Part shown: positions 173 through 28,672 of the stretch, piece by piece
Numbering within the stretch: position 1 is the stretch's first letter
Layout: every line of letters begins with the position of its first letter
Source: a virus
Taxonomy: Duplodnaviria; Caudoviricetes
Virus record (IMG/VR): IMGVR_UViG_3300050021_000111
Span: 1 to 28,672 of that record
Length of the DNA: 28,672 nt
Strand: one strand, 5' to 3'
Notes under the pieces: model-generated
Database searches by the model: none
What the model saw: the letters and a program-made list of their open reading frames with translations, nothing else
What the model was told of the DNA's origin: nothing
Position numbers and translations under genes: made by a program

Positions 173-1321
173 TCAGCGGTCCAAGTAAACGGTCTCGCCA
201 AACGGAGCGGTGTTACGCTCTTCGGTTGAAAGCCATATTACAGGCACGTTGCAATTTTCAGGGAACGGACCTTCGAGGTCCGTAATTATCACGGCACAGA
301 CCGCTGTACCATCATCTTCAATGGCCTTGAGTACCGGCCTAAAATCAGTTCCACTGAACCCTGTCGGCTTCCACGTCAAGGTATCGCCTTTATCAAAGCG
401 GTCAATGCTGGATACTTCGGAATCAAAGTAATAGACGTTTACAGCTAACGGTGATAATTCTTCAATGATAGACTCAAGTGTTCCACGGGCAAAGGAAAGT
501 GACTCCGCCGATACGCTGCCAGATGTGTCTATGCCTATTGCGATCTCTCCGAGTTCCTTTGACTCAAGAGCGGGCAGGTACAATCCTGATGCGACATAGC
601 GGGAGTTTGGCCGCGTCCATGAATAATCTGAATTGCAACGTTCACTAAAAAAACGGAGTAACAGGGACCGTACATCGATCTTAGCCTTGAGAGAATCCTT
701 GACCGTTCTTGCGAGTCCACCGGGCAATTTGCCGCACATCTTAGCGGCGTTTAGTGCCTGCGCCGCTTTTTGTTTCCATTCTTGCTCAGTGGGAGCCGGG
801 TCTCCATCGGCGTCTATATCGCTCGGAGCGTCCCTTACTTCTCCGAGCGGGTCCGGCTTGCTTTGCCCTTGCGCTGGATTATTGCCCTGCCCTTGACCGT
901 TCCCATTGCCGTTAGGTTGCGGCTTGTCATTCTGTTGAACGCGGGCATAATGCCATTCCGCCGATTTTCCCGAAACACTAGGAAACAATGATCCAGCGGG
1001 CAAAGTAAAGCCGGAATCACGTAATTCTGAATTTATGGAATAATCACAGGCGATATTCCAATTTTTAGAATCGCGAGCTTCTCTCCGCCATGGGTGACCC
1101 ATTGCACAATGCATGACTTCATGCGCGACTAGCGCGGTCACGCGGTCATGCGGCAAGGATTCGATAAACGTAGGATTGTAGCCAAGTGACCGCCCGTCAG
1201 TCCATGCGGTCTCACAGCCTGTATCCTCTTTGAACTTCAGGGATAAGGCAAGGGAACCAAAAAAAGGTTGGTCTAAAACTAACGAAACACGGGCGGAAGC
1301 CATTTTTGATTGAGCAGACAT
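173..1321 (-). CDS. DUF2201-type putative metallopeptidase with C-terminal VWA-like domain
   Basis: HExxH motif (AHEVMH), WNIACDYSIN, G/N/Q-rich linker, MIDAS motif IDTSGS, GTDF and ITD motifs; GAGAGGA RBS; ATG overlaps upstream TAA. Confidence 0.85.
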   Translation of the reverse strand: MSAQSKMASARVSLVLDQPFFGSLALSLKFKEDTGCETAWTDGRSLGYNPTFIESLPHDRVTALVAHEVMHCAMGHPWRREARDSKNWNIACDYSINSELRDSGFTLPAGSLFPSVSGKSAEWHYARVQQNDKPQPNGNGNGQGQGNNPAQGQSKPDPLGEVRDAPSDIDADGDPAPTEQEWKQKAAQALNAAKMCGKLPGGLARTVKDSLKAKIDVRSLLLRFFSERCNSDYSWTRPNSRYVASGLYLPALESKELGEIAIGIDTSGSVSAESLSFARGTLESIIEELSPLAVNVYYFDSEVSSIDRFDKGDTLTWKPTGFSGTDFRPVLKAIEDDGTAVCAVIITDLEGPFPENCNVPVIWLSTEERNTAPFGETVYLDR

Positions 1322-1947
1322 TACCGTTTCCTCTCAAATGACAGGGCAATAAACTCGCCATGTTTGGCTATTCTTTCGTGAAGAGTCGATGGAGTAACGC
1401 CTAAACGCTGTGACCATTCTGCAAGCGTTAAATTTTCTCCATTATGGGCAATTCTCCGATTCCTGCGCGTATTGTTTGCCTGTTCTTTCGGAGTTGCCCA
1501 TTTGCAATTTTCCGGCTCATAATTGCCGTTATTGTTGATTCTCTCGATTGACATACCGCGAACCTTTTCGCCCATATCGGCGAGAAAATTCTCAAATTTC
1601 ATCCACCGTTCACAGATGGTAATACCGCGTCCACCGTATATCGGATATTTTTCGCTATTAGGTTCTGTACAGCGGTCAATCATCGTATTCCAAGTGTGAT
1701 AAGTGAGAGTCCGTGAGAGTCCGTGAGTTGTGCGACTTTCGCGCATCCGTGCCGATGTAGAATCACTCTTCAAGCATCCGCATGATTGAGTGTTACCATT
1801 GACAAGATTTTTTCCCGGAAGGATTAAAGTCTTGCCGCAAACGCAGAGGCATTCCCATAAAGTGTTTCCTTTAGATGTACTCCCTGCGCGTTTAACTACT
1901 GTCAGTCTTACAAAATTTTTTCCTGCTAGATCAAGTGGTTTGCTCAT
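1321..1947 (-). CDS. Free-standing phage HNH homing endonuclease (frame open back to 2013)
   Basis: CVCG...SCGC N-terminal motif, THG..TWNTMIDRC, YGGRGITICERW, SIERINNNGNYEPENCKWAT..EQANN nuclease motif, C-terminal TLAEWS HTH; MSKPLDLAGK is a typical family start. Confidence 0.88.
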   Translation of the reverse strand: MSKPLDLAGKNFVRLTVVKRAGSTSKGNTLWECLCVCGKTLILPGKNLVNGNTQSCGCLKSDSTSARMRESRTTHGLSRTLTYHTWNTMIDRCTEPNSEKYPIYGGRGITICERWMKFENFLADMGEKVRGMSIERINNNGNYEPENCKWATPKEQANNTRRNRRIAHNGENLTLAEWSQRLGVTPSTLHERIAKHGEFIALSFERKR

Positions 1948-1953
1948 GAACAC

Positions 1954-1983
1954 AGTATACCGTACAATGTGCGAGTCAAGCAA
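1954..1983 (-). promoter_or_regulatory. Putative sigma-70 promoter giving a leaderless HNH transcript
   Basis: TTGCTT-N18-TATACT, followed after 6 nt by the ATG at 1947. Confidence 0.45.
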
Positions 1984-2051
1984 TAATCCGGTCGTTTTAC
2001 CTTGAGCGGTCATAGAATCCTTCCCATAATGCTTGCGTTCATGCTTGCTAA

Positions 2052-2081
2052 ACTGTATTCGATACGGCTAACGATTGTCAA
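2052..2081 (-). promoter_or_regulatory. Putative sigma-70 promoter
   Basis: TTGACA-N18-TACAGT upstream of the GGAAGGA RBS and ATG at 2013. Confidence 0.45.
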
Positions 2082-2083
2082 AT

Positions 2084-2106
2084 TGCCCGTTATCACGGCA
2101 CGGGCA
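2084..2106 (-). other. Intergenic stem-loop downstream of the DUF3150-like gene
   Basis: TGCCCGT-N9-ACGGGCA perfect 7-bp stem. Confidence 0.5.
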
Positions 2107-2119
2107 GGCCGATAGGAAA

Positions 2120-2995
2120 CTAGAAAATGTTTCCGTAAGTCGCGGTCATGGAATCCAGAATGCTCTGCGCTTGCTTTGCTACATCGGCGCGAACTTCGGG
2201 AACGTCACGGAGTGTCTGAGGTTCCGTGCTGGCGAGTAATTCCGTTTGACGGCGGAGCGCTTCAAGTTGTGGATCTTCGGTGACGTTCAAACGTGTAAGC
2301 ACGTCGCAAAGTTCCCTTGCGTTCCCTATCAATGTATCGCGGAAAATTGCATCAGGAGAAGAGCATTTTTCAACAATCGCCGATACCACTTTCCGCAACC
2401 TATCAACTGCGCCGTCTTTCCCTTGCATTGCCGCTGTGAATGCTTGCTGTACACGTTCTTCGGTGCGGGCGGCAATGGTATCAATCTCACTCTGTGCAAG
2501 CGTAACGCGGAAGTCAATACCTTGCGGTACAGGCGCATATTCCACGGTCCATTCATAGCGGTCACGAATGTTTGTAGGGTAATCGGAATCCTGAAACATT
2601 CCGTTTAGAACCCGCTGTGCCTCAAGCCGATAGGAAGGATACTCTGAAATGAAGTCAGACAGCAAACTGTCTGCCGTATGGAAGCCTTGTCGGATTGTAT
2701 CGGTGTACGCCTGATAATTCTTCACCGGCAGCATTCTCCAACCATCATCTGACCACGGCAAGGTCTGCGCGTAATTCAGTACGCGCAAGTTGGCAATGTG
2801 CGAGACCAGCGCCTTATATGCTGGAGCGTCACCGGGCAGCAGGCACTTGTTATACCTGCCCGCGTCAAGAGTGGTATTGTGCAAAGTCGCGGTCTCTTGA
2901 GACACTTTGCGGTCATACTTGCGGGCAGACCATGCGCTGATACGCAAGCTAACGAGCATTGCGCGAGTGTGAAGATCGGTCATTGTCATTGTCAT
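2120..2995 (-). CDS. DUF3150-like protein
   Basis: MLVSLRISAWSARKYD N-terminus, TLPWSDDGWRMLP, FRDTLIGN and LNVTEDP motifs recalled for this family; AGGAGA RBS (start may be ATG 2989); located between AAA and VWA genes. Confidence 0.65.
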   Translation of the reverse strand: MTMTMTDLHTRAMLVSLRISAWSARKYDRKVSQETATLHNTTLDAGRYNKCLLPGDAPAYKALVSHIANLRVLNYAQTLPWSDDGWRMLPVKNYQAYTDTIRQGFHTADSLLSDFISEYPSYRLEAQRVLNGMFQDSDYPTNIRDRYEWTVEYAPVPQGIDFRVTLAQSEIDTIAARTEERVQQAFTAAMQGKDGAVDRLRKVVSAIVEKCSSPDAIFRDTLIGNARELCDVLTRLNVTEDPQLEALRRQTELLASTEPQTLRDVPEVRADVAKQAQSILDSMTATYGNIF

Positions 2996-3048
2996 ATTCT
3001 CCTGATAATCGGTTATGGTACGTTTACGGCATGGCGGAAGGATAAAAA

Positions 3049-4083
3049 TTACTCTCTGCCGCTTATCAATTGGCCGATGGGACCGGAATTCAAACGAACG
3101 AAAGAATCGGTATATTGAATCTTTTCATCGCGTCTAATCGCGTCACGGACTAGCAATACGGCAAACTCGCCATGATCCGCTTCAGTGTAAAGCCGGGTGG
3201 CGTAGGTTGCGATACGTGCAAAATTGTTATCGTTTGCGCGGGCTGCGAGTCCAACCGATACAGCATACAATTCACTAGGCTTGCTAGGAATAGCGGCAGT
3301 ATCAGGATTCAAGAGAATCGCGTCAAGATTGATAAGGGACCGATACATGGACCTGAAAGACAGGTACTCAAGAGCAGCACCTTCGCCGACCGCTCCCGAA
3401 AATGCAGCCGATTCAATTTCAGCGGGCAAATTCAGCGCTTCGAGTTTGGCAACGTGAGACCACGTGCGCGGAACTGGCGAGTTTGTAAGGTCTGCCGTAG
3501 CCTGAAAATTGCAAAGCAATTCAGGACGAAAGCGCAAAAATGCTATCAGCATAGGCGATACGCTGTGAGCATACGCCCATGTACTCCAATCGTCTATATT
3601 CGCTTCAAGGTCAACGATACAGGCAAAGCGAGATTTTACCGGCTCAAGAATTCCCGATACTCCAGCGCGGTCACTGCGCCTATTTGTTGCGGCCACAAAG
3701 GTTATGCAATCCGGCAGAATGTGACCGTTTACCCTACGCGCAAGGATTAACTGCATAAAGCTAGCTTGTACGGCAGGAGTGGCCTGCCCTAGATCGTCTA
3801 GCAGCCAAACTGTAGGACGAACGGCATTTATTGCCGTTGCCAGTTCACCAAAAGGCAGGAAAGTGGCGGTGTTTCCATCGGCTTTTGGCCATGGTAACCC
3901 TTTAGCATCTGTCGGGTCCGCTACGGCAGGATGTGAGATAAGCAGGTCTGCTCCAGCGCTTGCTGCCGCTTGAGAGATAATGTCAGACTTGCCAACTCCC
4001 GGCGCGCCTGTAATTAGTAACGGCAAGCGGGCAGGAATCATGGCTGCGAGTAACGCGGTCAATTGTTTTGGCGATACGCTCAT
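3049..4083 (-). CDS. MoxR-like AAA+ ATPase
   Basis: Walker A GAPGVGKS, Walker B WLLDD, AATNR sensor, SRF arginine finger, PRTW; AGGAGA RBS. Confidence 0.9.
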   Translation of the reverse strand: MSVSPKQLTALLAAMIPARLPLLITGAPGVGKSDIISQAAASAGADLLISHPAVADPTDAKGLPWPKADGNTATFLPFGELATAINAVRPTVWLLDDLGQATPAVQASFMQLILARRVNGHILPDCITFVAATNRRSDRAGVSGILEPVKSRFACIVDLEANIDDWSTWAYAHSVSPMLIAFLRFRPELLCNFQATADLTNSPVPRTWSHVAKLEALNLPAEIESAAFSGAVGEGAALEYLSFRSMYRSLINLDAILLNPDTAAIPSKPSELYAVSVGLAARANDNNFARIATYATRLYTEADHGEFAVLLVRDAIRRDEKIQYTDSFVRLNSGPIGQLISGRE

Positions 4084-10522: not shown

Positions 10523-10577
10523 CTTTATCCTGCGCTTGTGAGAAAGTAGTTAAGTGAAACATTGTATGGGAGAGTAC

Positions 10578-11981
10578 ATGGATAACTCACAGTATGAAAA
10601 ATTTCTGGAAAGAAAAAGGTACACCCCTATAGTTTCAGGGTTGACCGATATTCCAGAGTTAAATACTAATATGTTTCCTCACCAGAGAGATGTTACTTCA
10701 TGGTCGTTGCGTCTTGGTAGGTCTGCTGCATTTCTAGGAACCGGATTAGGAAAATCTCTAATTGAAATTGAATGGTCAAGGATAATTTCATCTCATACTG
10801 GGATGCCTGTTATAGTATTAGCCCCACTGTCTGTGTGTTTTCAGATGGTAAGAGAGTCTGAAAAGTTCGGAATTGAAAACGTAAAGTATTGTCATAATTC
10901 AGAAGAATCAAAGGATGTTTCTATAGTCGTAACTAACTACGAGAGATTAGATCACTTTGATCCTGCCGATTACAGTGGAGTGGTTCTCGATGAGTCGAGC
11001 ATCCTTAAATCTTTTGATGGTTCTACAAGAAATCAACTTATAGAATCGTTTAAGAACACACCGTATAAATTATGTGCGACTGCCACTCCATCTCCTAATG
11101 ACTACATGGAGTTGGGAAATCATGCAGAATTTTTGGGGGTGATGACTGCCAATGAAATGCTTTCCATGTTCTTTACGCATAATGGAGGAGAAACTCAAAA
11201 GTGGAGGTTGAAAGGTCACGCTCGTAACGACTTTTGGAAATGGGTATGTTCGTGGGCTGTAAATATGCGTACTCCGGGAGATTGTGGATACGATGATGGT
11301 CCGTTCATACTTCCACCTTTGGTTTATCACGAACATATTGTTAAAGTAAATAAGCCGAGCGAAGGAATGTTGTTTGCGATGCCAGCAGAAACATTAAGTG
11401 AACGTCTTTCTGCACGTAGGTCAACGGTAGATGATCGAGTTGGAAAGGCTATAGAAATTGTAAACAATGAACCTGAAGAAATATGGCTAATATGGACAAA
11501 CTTAAACAGAGAAAGCGACACTATAACCAAAGCATTAGACGGTGCGGTAGAAGTAACAGGTTCAGATATACCAGACTATAAAGCACAGTGCGCATTGGAG
11601 TTTTCTGATGGGTGGATTAAAAGGCTCGTTAGTAAAAGTTCAATTTTCGGTTTTGGGAGCAATTTTCAATCATGCTCACATATGATTCACATTGGGGTCA
11701 CGGATAGTTTTGAGAGTTTCTTTCAGTCTGTAAGGCGTTGTTGGAGATTCGGACAAACGAAACCCGTACACGTCCACATCATCGCTGCATCGACAGAGGG
11801 GAATGTACTTGAGAATTTGAAGAGGAAAGAAAAAGAAGCTAATCAAATGGCTGATGAAATGGTAGCAAACATGCAAGACTTGACTAGGTTAAACTTAACA
11901 GGAACAGTTCGTGAAGTAACTCCTTACGAACCTAAACATGAAATGGATATACCAGATTGGTTAGTAGGGGGATCGAAGTGA
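10578..11981 (+). CDS. SF2 (SNF2-like) DNA helicase
   Basis: Q-motif FPHQ, motif I GTGLGKS, motif II LDESS, motif III TATPSPND, motif VI QSVRRCWRFGQ; GGGAGAG RBS before ATG 10578. Confidence 0.92.
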   Translation: MDNSQYEKFLERKRYTPIVSGLTDIPELNTNMFPHQRDVTSWSLRLGRSAAFLGTGLGKSLIEIEWSRIISSHTGMPVIVLAPLSVCFQMVRESEKFGIENVKYCHNSEESKDVSIVVTNYERLDHFDPADYSGVVLDESSILKSFDGSTRNQLIESFKNTPYKLCATATPSPNDYMELGNHAEFLGVMTANEMLSMFFTHNGGETQKWRLKGHARNDFWKWVCSWAVNMRTPGDCGYDDGPFILPPLVYHEHIVKVNKPSEGMLFAMPAETLSERLSARRSTVDDRVGKAIEIVNNEPEEIWLIWTNLNRESDTITKALDGAVEVTGSDIPDYKAQCALEFSDGWIKRLVSKSSIFGFGSNFQSCSHMIHIGVTDSFESFFQSVRRCWRFGQTKPVHVHIIAASTEGNVLENLKRKEKEANQMADEMVANMQDLTRLNLTGTVREVTPYEPKHEMDIPDWLVGGSK

Positions 11982-12940
11982 TTACTTCAAAAGTTCTAAA
12001 TCAAAAATCAGGAACAGATTGGGTTTCTTACAATGCCGACTGCGTAGAGATTGCCAAGTCTTTACCGACAGAATCAATTGATCTAACCGTTACATCTTGC
12101 CCATATTCAAATCTATATTGCTATTCTGGAAGCGAACGCGATATGGGGAATAGCAGAAATGATGAAGAGTTTCAAACTCATTTTAGGTTGTTGATTGATG
12201 AATTATTTAGGGTTACGAAGAAAGGTAGAATTGTAGCTATTGATTGCATGAATATCCCTGCAATGAAAAGCCGAGATGGATATATTGGACTAAAAGATTT
12301 CAGGGGAGATATAATCCGTCAGTTCATTGACGCTGGTTTTATATTCCACAGCGAACATTGCGCATGGAAAGATCCATTGCTGGAAGCAACTCGCACTAAA
12401 GCCATAGGATTGATGCACAAACAACTTTGCAAGGATTCTTCTAAAGTTAGGGCAGGAATTCCTCAATACATTCTTGCATTTAGAAAACCTGGAGAAAATA
12501 CAGAACCAATTGCTCATGAAAAAGGTTTAGAATGGTTCTTTGGTGAAAATCCTCCTAAAAATGGAGTATTATCTCACGAGAGGTGGAGAAGATACGCATC
12601 ACCTGTTTGGATGGATATTGACTTTACCCGCACATTAAACGGAAGAGAAGCAAGGGAGAATCAAGACGAAAGACATATCTGTCCTATGGCGTTAGACTTA
12701 ATAGAAAGGTGTGTTCATCTATGGTCTAACCCTAAAGACACAGTATACGATCCATTCGCAGGCATATGTTCTACTGGATATGTAGCAATACGGAACGGCA
12801 GGAGATTCGTTGGTAGTGAACTAAAAACATCATACTGGGAGCAGTCGTGCAAGAACCTAGAACGTGCAACTAGTATAAATTACGGATTGTTTTCTAGTGA
12901 AGAAAGTGACGATGATCATAGTGATGAAATAGAAGAGTAA
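11978..12940 (+). CDS. N4-C/N6-A DNA methyltransferase, beta class
   Basis: YNADC, motif IV-like TSCPY, HICP, SNPKDTVYDPFAGICSTG (motif I), GRRFVGSEL; GTGA overlap with the helicase. Confidence 0.88.
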   Translation: MITSKVLNQKSGTDWVSYNADCVEIAKSLPTESIDLTVTSCPYSNLYCYSGSERDMGNSRNDEEFQTHFRLLIDELFRVTKKGRIVAIDCMNIPAMKSRDGYIGLKDFRGDIIRQFIDAGFIFHSEHCAWKDPLLEATRTKAIGLMHKQLCKDSSKVRAGIPQYILAFRKPGENTEPIAHEKGLEWFFGENPPKNGVLSHERWRRYASPVWMDIDFTRTLNGREARENQDERHICPMALDLIERCVHLWSNPKDTVYDPFAGICSTGYVAIRNGRRFVGSELKTSYWEQSCKNLERATSINYGLFSSEESDDDHSDEIEE

Positions 12941-19458: not shown

Positions 19459-21609
19459 ATCTATAGCCAGAAGATTATCGAGCAAAATATCTCATTCTAT
19501 GAATCACAGAATGGTATTGAACTCGTGCGTCACACGTTTCCAGAAGTTCAGGAATTTTCAGAATACGTAAAAAACATAACGAAAATAGGAAGTAACTCTA
19601 AGGGTTCATGGATTGAATCTGTTGCTTCTATAACTCAAAAGAGACGGGAAGAAATACGTCGTTGGATTCTAAACGAGCAGGTTCTCTGTGGTTTAAGCTA
19701 CCATTACTGGCGTGACAATTATGCTTATGTGACAGACGAGGGTGGAAATATAGTAAAGTTCCAAAATCATAAGTCACAAGACGTATTTGATTCGGTTGTT
19801 GCTGATTTAGAGGAACAACAGGCTGGTATTCAGATTATCTGCTTGAAGGCCAGGCAGGTCGGGATCACGACACTCGTAGCATTGTATTTTAATCATAAAA
19901 TGCTTTTCGTTCCAAACACTCTTTCTGTAATGGCATCAGTACAAGCATCGAAATCAGCCGAAATTGAGATCAAATTCGATACATCTTACGAAAAGTGTCC
20001 GTTTTGGCTAGTTCCTAATATATCTTCAAAAAGAAAGTTTAGCAACGGATCGCGCCTTATGGTTGAGTCTGGTATGCAACCGAAGGGTATCGCGCAAGGA
20101 CAAACACCGCAGAATATTTTGATCTCGGAGATTGGTATCATCCCTAATCCTCATAACGTAATTGAGGAAGGACTGCTTCCTGCTACGCACGCGAATAAGA
20201 ACTTGTTTATGGTGTTTGAGGGAACTGGTTCAGGAAACGTAGGATGGTTTCCTGATTTCTGGAAGTCACAAAAATTAAAAATGGCGACAGGAACAGGAAG
20301 AATGTGTCCTGTATTTATATCGTGGCCTTTGGCAACAGATATGTATCCTCAAGCAGACTGGATACGAGCGCATCCTGTACCACCAGGATTCTACGAAAGA
20401 AGAATGGATGCTACCAGAGCGCATATTACTAGATGTGAATCTTACATCCGTAACACTCCGTATCTGGCAAAGGTGGTAGGTGCAGATTATCGAGTACCTA
20501 TTGAACAGCAGTATTGGTGGGAGTTAGAGTACGACCAAGCGCGTGAAAGACACTCTCTACAGCAACACGCGGCACGTTTACCAGCGGATGACTTTGAGGC
20601 TCTTACTGGAGTCCATGATAGTGTCTTTGACTTAGAGACAATCATGGAGTTGGAAGACGATATTTATGAGGTTAGGACAGGAGGAGAAAAGGTTCGCAGG
20701 AATCAATACCAAGTCTATGCAATCACAGGACACTCTATTTTAGAGGAGTTTGAGCCAAGAGAATCAGATATTGATTTTAATAAGGAAGTAATTCATCTAA
20801 CACACAAAAACAATCGTGATGAGCGTTATGATTGGGAACTTGTACCTTTGCTTCCGATAGATGAGGAAACGGAAGCAAATACGTTTGATAAACTCCTAGT
20901 ATATGAGCCTCCGATAAAAGGTGCAACGTATAGCTGCGGAGTAGATACAGCGCATGGATTAGGAAACGAGGATGAGGACCGATTCTGTGCGTCTATGACT
21001 AGGGTATCTACAGGATCAAGTGTGGATATGCAATGCGCAGAGCTTACGGCTAATCGTTTTAGCCCCGCTCAGGCAGTACCATTCCTAGCGGCAATGGCGT
21101 CGTGGTACGGACAGATTTCAGGTCATTATAGAGGAGTAAAGTTTTCGATTGAGCAGGTGGAAGGACCGGGAGATACTTGTCAGAACCAGTTAAAAATTAT
21201 GGGTTTCAACTACCACCACACCCCCGGAAGACTTGACGGAAAGAAGGTAAAGGATGAGAATAAGCATAGGGAAGGTTGGTACTCGAATAGGACAACAGTT
21301 CCTATTTTAATGGATAGGTTTGTTGAGGCTGTTAACGGTGGTTGGTATGTTCCTATGTCGAAGTGGTTGATAGAGGAGTTAAAAACTCTTGAGCGTAGAT
21401 CGAATGATGGTGGACGTGACAAGATGATTCACCAACAAAACAAGCATGACGATAGGATACGTGCCGCAGCGCAAAGCTATTTGAACTGCCACACATACGA
21501 TGATTTATCGGCACGGTCACAGAGACGGTACGCACAGCCGAGTAGGAAGAAGTCAGACCCAAACAAGGGTCGCTGTATGAGTAACGCATTTTCAGTGGGA
21601 GAGTGGTAA
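19459..21609 (+). CDS. terL: Terminase large subunit
   Basis: Walker A LKARQVGITT, Walker B ILISE, coupling motif FEGT, nuclease GVDTAHG and KHDD; frame is open from 19456, proposed ATC start at 19459 (track start 19525). Confidence 0.88.
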   Translation: MYSQKIIEQNISFYESQNGIELVRHTFPEVQEFSEYVKNITKIGSNSKGSWIESVASITQKRREEIRRWILNEQVLCGLSYHYWRDNYAYVTDEGGNIVKFQNHKSQDVFDSVVADLEEQQAGIQIICLKARQVGITTLVALYFNHKMLFVPNTLSVMASVQASKSAEIEIKFDTSYEKCPFWLVPNISSKRKFSNGSRLMVESGMQPKGIAQGQTPQNILISEIGIIPNPHNVIEEGLLPATHANKNLFMVFEGTGSGNVGWFPDFWKSQKLKMATGTGRMCPVFISWPLATDMYPQADWIRAHPVPPGFYERRMDATRAHITRCESYIRNTPYLAKVVGADYRVPIEQQYWWELEYDQARERHSLQQHAARLPADDFEALTGVHDSVFDLETIMELEDDIYEVRTGGEKVRRNQYQVYAITGHSILEEFEPRESDIDFNKEVIHLTHKNNRDERYDWELVPLLPIDEETEANTFDKLLVYEPPIKGATYSCGVDTAHGLGNEDEDRFCASMTRVSTGSSVDMQCAELTANRFSPAQAVPFLAAMASWYGQISGHYRGVKFSIEQVEGPGDTCQNQLKIMGFNYHHTPGRLDGKKVKDENKHREGWYSNRTTVPILMDRFVEAVNGGWYVPMSKWLIEELKTLERRSNDGGRDKMIHQQNKHDDRIRAAAQSYLNCHTYDDLSARSQRRYAQPSRKKSDPNKGRCMSNAFSVGEW

Positions 21610-24908: not shown

Positions 24909-24936
24909 TTGACAGTGCGCACCAGAGGTGTATACT
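24909..24936 (+). promoter_or_regulatory. Sigma-70 promoter of the RAMP/array cassette
   Basis: TTGACA-N16-TATACT, with a second TTGACA at 24895; ATG begins 7 nt after the -10. Confidence 0.7.
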
Positions 24937-24942
24937 TTTAAT

Positions 24943-25095
24943 ATGCCACAGCGATTACAGAAGGTAGTGATCTGGATTTGCAGTAGGTGTGGACACGAAT
25001 GGAGTAGCGTAAATGGCGACAAGCCACTTCGCTGCGCTGAGTGCAAATCACCTTACTGGGACAGACCGCGTAAAACCAAATCCGACACTCGCTAA
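24943..25095 (+). CDS. 50-aa Zn-ribbon protein, probably leaderless (below the track cutoff)
   Basis: MPQRLQKVVIWICSRCGHEWSSVNGDKPLRCAECKSPYWDRPRKTKSDTR; two CxxC pairs. Confidence 0.8.
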   Translation: MPQRLQKVVIWICSRCGHEWSSVNGDKPLRCAECKSPYWDRPRKTKSDTR

Positions 25096-26211: not shown

Positions 26212-26501
26212 GTAGGTTCTGGTGCGGCAGGTATGGTTGGAATGGGCGGTTGTGTTGAGTATGGCTGTGTTTGGAATCGCAGGTACGGTCAGGCTCGCAT
26301 TGGAGTGGCGAGGCGGGGAAACGCAGGTAAGGAGTGACGAGGAACGCAAAGGTTTGTCTAGGACATGAACGGCAGGTCGCGTTAGTTTAGGATGGACAGT
26401 TGTGGAACGATGAGGACGGTAGGTTCGGGCACGGTGTAGTAACGCAGGCGTGGCATGGCGGGGCGTCGAGGGGATAGTTTTGGATGGGTCCGTCAATGAG
26501 T
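26212..26501 (+). ncRNA. Array of 5-nt GGN-NN units punctuated by GCAGG; candidate guide-RNA array
   Basis: G(C/T)AGG at 26212, 26227, 26279, 26323, 26372, 26419 and 26444; e.g. GGT AC GGT CA GGC TC GCA TT GGA GT GGC GA GGC GG GGA AA. Confidence 0.8.
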
Positions 26502-26534
26502 GTAAACGAAAGGTGCTAATGATTTAAGACCAAA

Positions 26535-26568
26535 GGGCGGCGGTCTTCGGATCGCCGTTTATTTTTTT
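26535..26568 (+). terminator. Intrinsic terminator closing the cassette
   Basis: GGGCGGCGGTC-TTCG-GATCGCCGTTT stem with cUUCGg loop, then ATTTTTTT. Confidence 0.85.
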
Positions 26569-26569
26569 C

Positions 26570-26598
26570 TTGACATACGAATGTTTTTCCTTTACGAT
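26570..26598 (+). promoter_or_regulatory. Sigma-70 promoter for the portal/structural genes
   Basis: TTGACA-N17-TACGAT. Confidence 0.7.
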
Positions 26599-26651
26599 TC
26601 GTTTAGCCGTATCTAAGGATGCGACACGTACCGGGAGGAAAGCGATGCGGT

Positions 26652-28672
26652 GTGCCTTCTAAACTTGAAACCGTAAGGTGGCAGGTGCCTAACTGGGAGG
26701 CATCTGCGAGTGAAAAGATCGGCTGGATTGAAGAGTGTATTTCAGAAGGTGAGGGTTATCTATCTGGCTCCTCGGCTTATAGGAATCTCAACAGAAATCT
26801 GCGTGTGTTTGATGGAGTTTTTAACGATAAAACAAAAAGTACGCTAGTCACAAATCAGTTAAAATACAACATTCGGAAATTCTGCGAAACCCTTGCGGAA
26901 GTACGTGAAATTGCGGGGTTTAGCTCAGACGTACCTGCCTATAAAGCAATGGCAGAGATGCTTACAAAGGTAAGCAAATGTGTTTATTTAGAGTCAGATT
27001 TTCCCTACCAAATCCTAAAAGTTTTGCAGTACGCAACAGTTTGCGGCATTGGATATTTATGGCCTAAAGTTCGTCCGACAGAGTACGGATTTGGACCAAG
27101 AGAAATGACATTTGATGCGCTAGGGCTATTAGATGTAGTTCCAGTCCAGATACCTGCTTGGTCAAACGATATTCAAGATTGTTATGCTTGCACGGTTTAT
27201 GATTATATGCCCATTGCAGAGGCGAGTGCGAAATTTCCTCTATTCCAAGGCCAACTTCAAACAGTTGGAAGAAATAATTACAAAACTTTAATTCAGGCAC
27301 AGCGGCAGGATTTTGCTGCTACGTTTCGTTATGGAATGGTTGGGGATGTACAGAGCCGGAGTTTTGGAAACCTGTACACAGAGATAAGATACACATTTAT
27401 TAGAGACATACGGATCAACACTACGGGAAAAGAGATGCAGATGGGTGATCCGGGAACGTCCTGGTTCTATAAAGTCCCGTCTATGGGACAGCCTATTTTT
27501 GGAGGGATGAGGGATGGAAAACCATACAGTCGTCCAGCGATGCCTGAAGATTGTAGAATCTACCCTAACCTACGGCTCATCATTACGTCTTCAGGACTGG
27601 ACAGGCCGATGTATGACGGTACTTCCTTCGATTGGGACTCCAAAATACCAGTCATTCAGTATACAGTGGATGATTGGGCATGGGAACCGCTAGGACGGTC
27701 ATTAGTAGGGGATGTCGCGTCAATTGAGAACACGATTAGGAAGCACGAAAGGCTGATGGATCAGGTTCTTACGGCAGGAATGAATCCTCCAATGGGGTAT
27801 GATTTGGATACCAACGGTGGAGCGAAGATTGAGCATTTTGATATTTTTGAACCTGATGTAAGGCTAGGACTTGCAGGTGGAGAGCCGACAAAGACATTCC
27901 AATCGCTGTTACCTGATTCAGTGAGAGTGACACAAATAAATGAAACGTACCTTAAATACTTGGGTGATAAAGAGTTAGCTCAGCTTGGATTGAATGATGT
28001 TGGGAACCTTTCCAACATGAAAATGAATATCGCCAACGACACAGCAGATAAAATGCTGGAATCTATCGGTCCTATCGCTAAGGGAATTGCGATGAGGATA
28101 GAAAAAGCCAATAAGCGCGTAGGAGAGAGGATGAAAACTCTTATTCCTCAATGGTTTGACGCTGCAAGGCTTATTGAATATGTAGGACCGGACAGCATAG
28201 CGAAGGAAATGTTTGACTACAATCCTGACGATATGGTTCCTAGCCATCTGCCAGATGAATTATTAAGTGGTCAATTCCCTACAACGAAGTCGATGTACGA
28301 CCGTCTGACCAGAGCGAAGTTTTTTGCGAACAAACTTCGTCTTGTCACTGTTCCGAATACGCTACTCAGGATCACGGCTATGCAGCGTCAGATGATGATG
28401 CTGCAATTAAAGCGCAGCGGAGCGCCTTTAAGTTGGTCTACTGTGATGAAAACAATCGACATAGCGAACTGGGGAGATTCACCGGGATCGACTGAAAAGG
28501 AAAAATACTTCAACGAGGAAACAGAATTGCAGGTCATGGCGATTATTGCTAAGGCTAAGGCTTTCATGAAGTTGAAGGAAATGGGGATTGATCCGTCTGT
28601 ATTGGAAGGTGGAGAACAGGGTGGTAAGGGCGGTAAAGGAGGCGGCAAAGGACCAGCAGGACAGCACGCGGG
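26652..28672 (+). CDS. Probable portal protein, 3'-truncated by the window
   Basis: Hand translation from GTG 26652 (MPSKLETVRWQVPNWE...) is open to the window end (>670 codons); VTNQLKYNIRK, YATVCGIGY, PLGRSLVGDV and MNPP segments fit P22-like portals; lies downstream of terL. Confidence 0.75.
   Translation, partial: MPSKLETVRWQVPNWEASASEKIGWIEECISEGEGYLSGSSAYRNLNRNLRVFDGVFNDKTKSTLVTNQLKYNIRKFCETLAEVREIAGFSSDVPAYKAMAEMLTKVSKCVYLESDFPYQILKVLQYATVCGIGYLWPKVRPTEYGFGPREMTFDALGLLDVVPVQIPAWSNDIQDCYACTVYDYMPIAEASAKFPLFQGQLQTVGRNNYKTLIQAQRQDFAATFRYGMVGDVQSRSFGNLYTEIRYTFIRDIRINTTGKEMQMGDPGTSWFYKVPSMGQPIFGGMRDGKPYSRPAMPEDCRIYPNLRLIITSSGLDRPMYDGTSFDWDSKIPVIQYTVDDWAWEPLGRSLVGDVASIENTIRKHERLMDQVLTAGMNPPMGYDLDTNGGAKIEHFDIFEPDVRLGLAGGEPTKTFQSLLPDSVRVTQINETYLKYLGDKELAQLGLNDVGNLSNMKMNIANDTADKMLESIGPIAKGIAMRIEKANKRVGERMKTLIPQWFDAARLIEYVGPDSIAKEMFDYNPDDMVPSHLPDELLSGQFPTTKSMYDRLTRAKFFANKLRLVTVPNTLLRITAMQRQMMMLQLKRSGAPLSWSTVMKTIDIANWGDSPGSTEKEKYFNEETELQVMAIIAKAKAFMKLKEMGIDPSVLEGGEQGGKGGKGGGKGPAGQHA

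Follow-up and report, generated by a model that had tools for sequence, protein, structure and literature searches.

VIPR, a CRISPR-like and phage-borne system, was described by Yoon et al. (bioRxiv 10.64898/2026.04.26.720920), and its structures were reported in a second preprint (10.64898/2026.04.26.720927). In the accessible parts of both, Vipr forms a filament on the vrRNA, a gapped R-loop triplex arises and silencing is exerted from either strand. The published arrays hold 9-16 pentamers of the GGY/NN type (10.64898/2026.04.26.720920). Here we analysed a stretch of 28,672 nucleotides (nt; the window) from a Caudoviricetes virus, IMG/VR record IMGVR_UViG_3300050021_000111. The interval between its terminase and portal genes is a VIPR system, the last vrRNA unit (unit 5) of which reads a stretch that is conserved in the portal genes of related phages, and the window's own portal holds an altered allele of that stretch. 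The system and its 1-nt-skip code were already published. What appears to be new is portal guides with linked, altered self alleles: in the accessible parts of the literature, no guide aimed at a portal was found together with a linked self allele that differs nonsynonymously, although the supplementary target tables and figures may hold cases.

The locus shares with the VIPR of Yoon et al. (10.64898/2026.04.26.720920) a RAMP protein of the same PHROG as SUSP1 Vipr, an accessory gene, GGY/NN pentamers, the 1-nt skip at the wobble position, carriage by a phage, a guide aimed at other phages and, as far as the legend of their fig. S18 goes, a 'staggered' array with 1-nt overlaps. However, the accessory protein cannot be aligned to SUSP1 vap1, the units share no tail, the scaffold is more degenerate and has 4-nt steps, and SUSP1 W178 aligns to an invariant Gly. 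The target also differs: it is of one gene family with the essential gene that the carrier itself has next to the cassette, and the self match exceeds 80%. Yoon et al., by contrast, reported no self match at 80% in the P. fulva clade and in types III and V (10.64898/2026.04.26.720920). In the accessible part of Lopez et al. (10.64898/2026.10.15.759431), on SUSP1 VIPR against F5 satellites and on solo vrRNAs, the guide is likewise wobble-aligned on a conserved coding stretch, and self scores were likewise below non-self scores, there for vrRNA-targeting guides. Their target was the recombinase of a satellite, which reportedly could not escape and stay functional. The targets in the window's family are instead the portals of full sister phages, and in these, nonsynonymous escape alleles that differ at both read bases exist and recur. 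The likeness to the free-standing homing endonucleases of T4 (seg/mob; marker exclusion) is one of arrangement only. In the accessible part of PMC2988022 these are intergenic inserts, co-inherited with linked sequence, whose target lies in a conserved neighbouring gene of related phages, some hundreds of bases off. In contrast, the window's cassette would act by RNA-guided silencing, and no nuclease was seen, so that break-driven gene conversion would not be expected.

The guide of unit 5 and its target

Unit 5 parsed as the original prediction had written it. Read with a 1-nt skip, its 11 dinucleotides matched portal positions 27039-27070 (+) at 19/22 bases, the last seven dinucleotides perfectly. 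Mismatches fell in dinucleotide 2, where AT of the guide meets TG of the gene and neither base pairs up, and in dinucleotide 4, where only the first base differs (GT in the guide, AT in the gene). The skipped bases are the wobble positions of the portal frame, so that the gapped reading proposed earlier is the published VIPR code, wobble preference included. With skips of 0, 2 and 3, the best matches in the window were 15, 16 and 15 of 22. The score of 19/22 was reached in the window by 1/1000 dinucleotide-order shuffles and 0/1000 base shuffles, and that of the nine clearest pentamers (15/18) by 16/1000 and 18/1000. The chance estimate of 1e-4 given before was somewhat optimistic, five units and four skips having been tried, and the match in the window alone is only suggestive.

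The relatives (loci denoted L plus a number) settled the matter. Across 68 distinct alleles, dereplicated from 113 portal segments, skip 1 gave a median of 20 (maximum 22) for the 11-mer and of 16 (maximum 18) for the 9-mer, and none of 300 shuffles reached either median. Skips of 0, 2 and 3 had a median of 13 and a maximum of 15 and were rejected on the scores in the window as well as in the 68 alleles. The individual unit-5 scores were 22/22 in one allele, 21 in 18, 20 in 33, 19 in 15 (self included) and 18 in one. The 3' end of the guide had been chosen with the match in sight; it proved right, because a 12th dinucleotide left the best score unimproved (maximum 22/24). On these sequences the unit-5 portal match is confirmed as not post hoc.

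It had also been proposed that the guide targets the portal of related phages and that a perfect match should exist, and both were borne out. All 22 loci from two gapped-pattern scans are portal homologues (3 metagenome loci with a 10-unit pattern in which one base was given as C/G/T, 19 viral loci with a looser one). The perfect match lies in L162 (VMGVGYLWPKV, 22/22, portal 76% identical) and includes the last dinucleotide, which the pattern left out. Although these patterns enriched the sample for good matches, the 80 loci that came solely from protein similarity had mostly reached 20-21 before. Conservation of the target (site 1) follows the code, the majority frequency at codon positions 1/2/3 being 0.93/0.97/0.56. 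The claim that such a guide is immune to synonymous escape is true in general. The exceptions are Leu, Arg and Ser codons, and many relatives do lose a base to CTN Leu or AGR Arg.

Units 1-4 had no match above shuffles in the window, in 182 loci together with the window, or in 12 related records (2.09 Mb, both strands). In the 12-record scan, two units from relatives scored one base more than 20 shuffles did and were dismissed. The exact pattern of unit 3 hit 23 viral loci, which were AT-rich, unrelated and in many cases interrupted by in-frame stops, and these were rejected as chance. The dinucleotides of unit 3 are nearly unchanged in three phages in which the scaffold bases vary (window 26326-26375; L007 1133-1185; L008 5331-5380), which suggests a conserved target.

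Carriers and their own portal alleles

Codon 2 of site 1 is Met in 52 of the 68 alleles, Thr in 13, Cys in 2 (window and L098) and Phe in 1 (L007), and the substitution of the window is therefore confined to itself and the near-identical allele of L098. When viral contigs were scanned for the Cys and Phe alleles, only copies of the window, L098 and L007 appeared among portal genes. Only the window, L098, L007 and L161 have a codon at which neither read base matches. The window scores 19/22 versus 20-21 in its clade; Ile at codon 4 is an ordinary allele there and no evidence of avoidance. L007 has a vipr fragment 97% identical to that of the window and a last unit homologous to unit 5. Its guide matched L164 and L172, in the sister clade, at 22/22 across a 4-nt step, and itself at 18/22 (VFGCGYLWAKV). 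The two carriers of a unit-5-type guide are the two lineages with odd codon-2 residues, a coincidence expected in 1 of ~1650 lineage pairs by a back-of-envelope figure that ignores kinship and ascertainment.

Similar patterns were observed at other sites. The last unit of L005 reads site 2 at 20/20 in 35/68 alleles and at 15/20 in itself (NDIQDCYACT versus NDVQDAYAVT). The search with phrog_4652 over 46 portal-family records gave a match in 4. Two of these, L086 and L176, carry a cassette immediately in front of the portal, with a Vipr of a distant subtype (BLASTP E 0.009 to the protein of the window). The guide of L176 reads site 3 antisense, at 27/30 in its tree sisters L166, L167 and L180, 28/30 in L169 and 22/30 in itself, scored over the first 15 of its 20 pentamers, a length chosen after the match was known. 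The guide of L086 reads site 4 at 32/34 in L098, 29-30 in sisters and 27/34 in itself; in its 16-unit form shuffles attained at most 23/32 versus 30. A 6-nt step lies within the match of this guide. In total, 5/5 VIPR cassettes found directly before a portal of this family, belonging to two Vipr subtypes, include a guide that reads the portal, the guides being spread over four sites, and each of the five carriers scores below its sister phages through nonsynonymous swaps, often to Cys. Because L176 and L086 use the distant subtype, the arrangement arose at least twice.

Fifty vipr-bearing records (of 80 loci) were searched, and 5 hold a portal of the present family. L006 and L008 (vipr 85% and 94%) served as controls: their cassettes are far from the portal, none of their units matches a portal better than shuffles do, and the portals themselves have retained the common alleles. 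L008 has units 1, 3 and 4 of the window, not unit 5. The guides of L293 and L231-L233 had no target above shuffles.

Apparent escape haplotype and shared tracts

The two-Cys haplotype at site 2 was found in 9/68 alleles and a further fragment group, also in phages without an adjacent VIPR. With residues 125-205 excluded from the tree, 5 changes are required to account for it, and a single origin was rejected (one clade, approximately unbiased test, p-AU 1.9e-59). The window and L098 share a tract of ~1 kb that is far more alike than its flanks (Table 1), and beyond the first ~100 bases of the portal L005 is near-identical to L163, which has no cassette before it. vipr was not found in the 73-kb record of L098 (64% complete) or in the L279/L280 fragments, which does not prove its absence. 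Presumably, either cassettes were lost or resistant tracts were acquired by cassette-free phages. The TG of Cys differs at both read bases from the AT of Met, the GT of Val and the GC of Ala, which would make Cys an efficient and conservative escape residue. Because nonsynonymous double-base alleles recur, also in phages without an adjacent VIPR, the guides do not seem to be escape-proof, and nonsynonymous escape is what the portal family appears to show.

Proposed mechanism and alternative explanations

We consider it probable that unit 5 silences the portal operon of co-infecting relatives and that the linked resistant allele protects the carrier. The Vipr filament would bind the last vrRNA and read the conserved portal stretch of relatives by the 1-nt-skip code. 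The anatomy, the code, the target family, the allele distributions and the identity tracts, and with them the match, were observed directly in the sequences; binding and transcriptional silencing would follow published VIPR work. In a mixed infection the head-packaging operon of the rival would be shut down. The carrier would avoid self-silencing at its own portal site, ~540 bases downstream, since the change from Met to Cys alters both read bases. Because guide and resistant allele are physically linked, they would travel together, and rivals could escape by a like amino-acid swap or by recombining a resistant tract in. The picture would be that of an arms race among kin. A broader view, held tentatively and with slightly less than even confidence, is that VIPR cassettes are kin-exclusion elements of a 'poison plus linked antidote' type that insert before the portal, silence the common portal allele of relatives in a co-infection and are protected by a linked allele recoded at the protein level, typically to Cys with both read bases changed. 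Escape haplotypes would then sweep recurrently and spread by recombination through an essential structural gene, and would provide the first visible natural escape from a wobble-skipping code.

Several observations weigh against silencing of relatives with a protected carrier. Self-sparing at 19/22 through three 5' mismatches, as put forward in the original prediction, would be its weak step. The self match (86%) is above the 80% target cut-off of Yoon et al. (10.64898/2026.04.26.720920) and near the 89.2% average of natural SUSP1 targets in the accessible part of Lopez et al. (10.64898/2026.10.15.759431). In the cryo-EM series, as described in the accessible part of the structure preprint (10.64898/2026.04.26.720927), pairing starts at the 3' end, where seven dinucleotides are perfect on self. 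Self does not stand out as the lowest scorer of the family, since 13 alleles with Thr, from a distant clade, also reached only 19-20/22, and the self score of L086 is mid-range for the portal family. Apparently resistant alleles occur in records without an adjacent VIPR (L098, L163, L085, L119, L120, L168 and the L279 group), mostly fragments. The departures of the window from conserved portal residues do favour silencing of relatives, at 4/21 positions in sites 1-2 versus 5/244 elsewhere (p 0.003), but the test left the 9 Cys carriers out of the background. Because the guides themselves defined the sites, and patterns built from them led to several of the perfect-match loci, the frequency of such matches is not unbiased; the exact 11-unit pattern had 0 matches in viral contigs and the 10-unit pattern 0 in the genome contig collection.

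The self match of 86%, perfect over its 3' part, would also fit a guide that partly repressed the portal and late operon of its own phage, for timing or dormancy, with the mismatches tuning the strength. This resembles the tuning of the phage's own late transcription that the original prediction had offered as an alternative. The cassette adjoins the predicted portal promoter, and the 3'-to-5' assembly in the accessible part of the published structures (10.64898/2026.04.26.720927) fits as well. However, in 5/5 carriers the mismatches are rare amino-acid changes in the target and not changes in the guide, through which tuning would be cheaper; the guides fit relatives, up to perfectly; and the self scores of L005 (75%) and L176 (73%) are below 80%. 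Autoregulation is thus disfavoured and in our opinion quite improbable. A relic copy of portal sequence without function, or a chance match, can hardly be credited. Though ~1.7% of shuffles reached the score of the nine pentamers in the window and units 1-4 had no target, the fit is family-wide at skip 1 only (0/300 shuffles), and the homologous unit of L007 keeps its dinucleotides while the scaffold varies and reads its own sisters at 22/22. Chance was refuted by the portals of relatives (L162 at 22/22, and the shuffles over 68 alleles).

It is unlikely, too, that the cassette was simply acquired horizontally from the L005/L007/L162 clade and is aimed there, the mismatches being partly incidental divergence or escape from the guides of other phages. 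Such an import would explain why vipr is 92-97% identical to that of L005 and L007 and the portals only 73-75%, and why unit 5 is homologous to the last unit of L007. At codon 4, the L005/L007/L162 clade typically has Val and the clade of the window Ile, which makes one of the three mismatches ordinary, and the window also holds the site-2 haplotype against a guide that it lacks. However, the change from Met to Cys is confined to the window and L098, and the Cys and Phe alleles amount to two carriers of a unit-5-type guide and one recombinant-looking allele. For the remaining mismatch, import is compatible with silencing of relatives by a protected carrier.

The VIPR locus and its genomic setting

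The identity of the locus rests on several comparisons. Vipr matched phrog_4652 at E 1.4e-13, as did SUSP1 Vipr at E 1.4e-96, and hhalign joined the two with 90% probability (E 1.4e-6, 54 columns), covering the thumb Arg and the G-loop (R155=R138, R196=R179, E194=D177). An AlphaFold2 model from an alignment of 53/80 loci had pLDDT 86 and resembled Csm3/Cmr RAMPs best (Z 11.0, rmsd 4.0 over 148); prediction from the single sequence was useless (pLDDT 36). Vipr is thus a RAMP fold outside a CRISPR-cas locus, with no cas genes among the 12 neighbours scanned. Its sequence gave 0 matches among solved structures, and neither vipr nor vap had a match in Pfam. SUSP1 agp039 agreed with 13/14 residue numbers quoted in the accessible part of the structure preprint (10.64898/2026.04.26.720927). 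Residue 175 of SUSP1 Vipr (L291 28474-29061) is Val in the record and Thr in that part of the preprint.

A homologue of the accessory gene adjoins vipr in 78/80 related loci. Its profile aligned with SUSP1 vap1 at a probability of only 0.6%, and ESM Atlas returned unnamed viral clusters only. Because the accessory gene is not SUSP1 vap1, the locus is not a type II VIPR (SUSP1 / P. fulva): it lacks vap1, and its vrRNAs lack the conserved, structured 3' tail that marks this type. In the published scheme, the other types are set by Vipr phylogeny, the class of vap and the form of the array. The five units comprise 8-14 pentamers before a GC-AG joint, on a degenerate scaffold, and abut with a 1-nt overlap. 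Steps of 3 and 4 nt occur inside units (window 26230-26282, 26375-26447; L007 1253-1310), and a 2-nt scaffold seems tolerated, the portal match of L007 crossing a 4-nt step. One related phage (record G031; L231 13270-13324, L232 5570-5629 and 11296-11355, L233 8122-8331) has two Vipr subtypes as well as several GGY/NN tracts at a distance, the longest count among them being 42 pentamers. Among the phage-collection matches H1-H31, Vipr homologues were present in Cyanophage Cy-LDV1 (56%) and in many Mycobacterium and Gordonia phages (28-33%), and these cultured phages are possible test systems for the Vipr subfamily.

The end of the window is a packaging module with the large terminase at 19525-21609. 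The interval up to the portal holds a promoter, a zinc-ribbon-like open reading frame (ORF), two genes, five G-rich units, a terminator and a second promoter (Table 1).

Table 1. Features of the VIPR cassette and the portal gene in the window.
Feature	Position	Strand	Remarks
Sigma70-type promoter of VIPR cassette (predicted)	24909..24936	+	TTGACA-16-TATACT, 11/12 consensus match; putative function
CxxC...CxxC zinc-ribbon-like ORF, 50 aa, first in cassette	24943..25095	+	ATG start picked within 55-aa GTG ORF
vipr, stand-alone RAMP (Cas7-like) protein, 216 aa	25119..25769	+	phrog_4652, SUSP1 Vipr homology, fold
vap-like accessory gene, 144 aa	25769..26203	+	phrog_15946
vrRNA units 1-4, staggered array	26227..26446	+	each opens with GCAGG; one-G overlap between neighbours
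vrRNA unit 5, 11 pentamers	26447..26501	+	dinucleotides read portal codons V-M-G-V-G-Y-L-W-P-K-V, positions 1-2
Intrinsic terminator after array (predicted)	26535..26570	+	11-pair stem and U tract
Sigma70-type promoter of portal gene (predicted)	26570..26598	+	TTGACA-17-TACGAT, 10/12 match; putative function
Portal gene, open at window end	26619..28672	+	PF16510 weak, phrog_156
Site 4, read by L086 guide	26712..26762	+	window 28/34
Tract of ~1 kb shared with L098, holding sites 1-3	26794..27790	+	97-100% identity; flanks 74-94%
Site 3, read antisense by L176 guide	26847..26891	+	window 22/30
Site 1, own allele of unit-5 target, VCGIGYLWPKV	27039..27071	+	19/22; Met-to-Cys (ATG to TGC) removes both read bases
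Site 2, target of L005 last guide	27165..27194	+	window has two-Cys haplotype NDIQDCYACT, 15/20

The true start of the portal is possibly GTG 26652, judged from a GGAGG site. Strong hairpins at the position of the terminator were also seen in L005, L007 and L008; besides the terminator, unit-5 RNA had no conserved structure (z -1.1). Because the portal resembles that of Tunturiibacter phage Tunturi_1 (29% identical, E 2e-68), an Acidobacteriota host is indicated. RNA libraries containing the stretch came from peat, permafrost and bioreactors. Metatranscriptome contigs covered vipr, vap and the portal in 4/4 runs, though contigs show neither transcription nor processing. Unit 5 was covered by a single 151-nt contig at depth 2, and the missing array cover in 3/4 RNA runs is no evidence.

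The small CxxC-CxxC ORF (window 24943-25095; L293 1256-1399) begins almost at the predicted transcription start and may be leaderless; its homologue in L293 precedes a different Vipr subtype. In L292 its place is taken by a small ORF that we take to be ribbon-helix-helix-like. Several relatives (L085, L086, L087, L089, L094, L114-L118, L131) have, between terL and portal, a second ORF ~30-39% similar to terminase residues 450-690 (the nuclease domain), possibly another mobile insert at the same spot. Elsewhere in the window, 173-4083 (-) holds an AAA_5 ATPase, a DUF2201 metallopeptidase/vWA gene and a 291-aa gene, among which a presumably HNH-like ORF (1321-2013) is inserted, and 10554-12940 holds ORFs that we assume from their motifs to be helicase-like and DNA methyltransferase-like.

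Implications

The portal family offers a natural experiment: one essential gene is read by five guides at four sites, and sensitive alleles can be paired with apparently resistant ones. The allele pairs are ready for measuring mismatch tolerance, which is relevant to VIPR as a tool and is not reported in the accessible parts of the three VIPR preprints. The finding challenges the printed view of wobble-skipping as escape-proof, and it suggests how VIPR may tell self from non-self without a protospacer adjacent motif.

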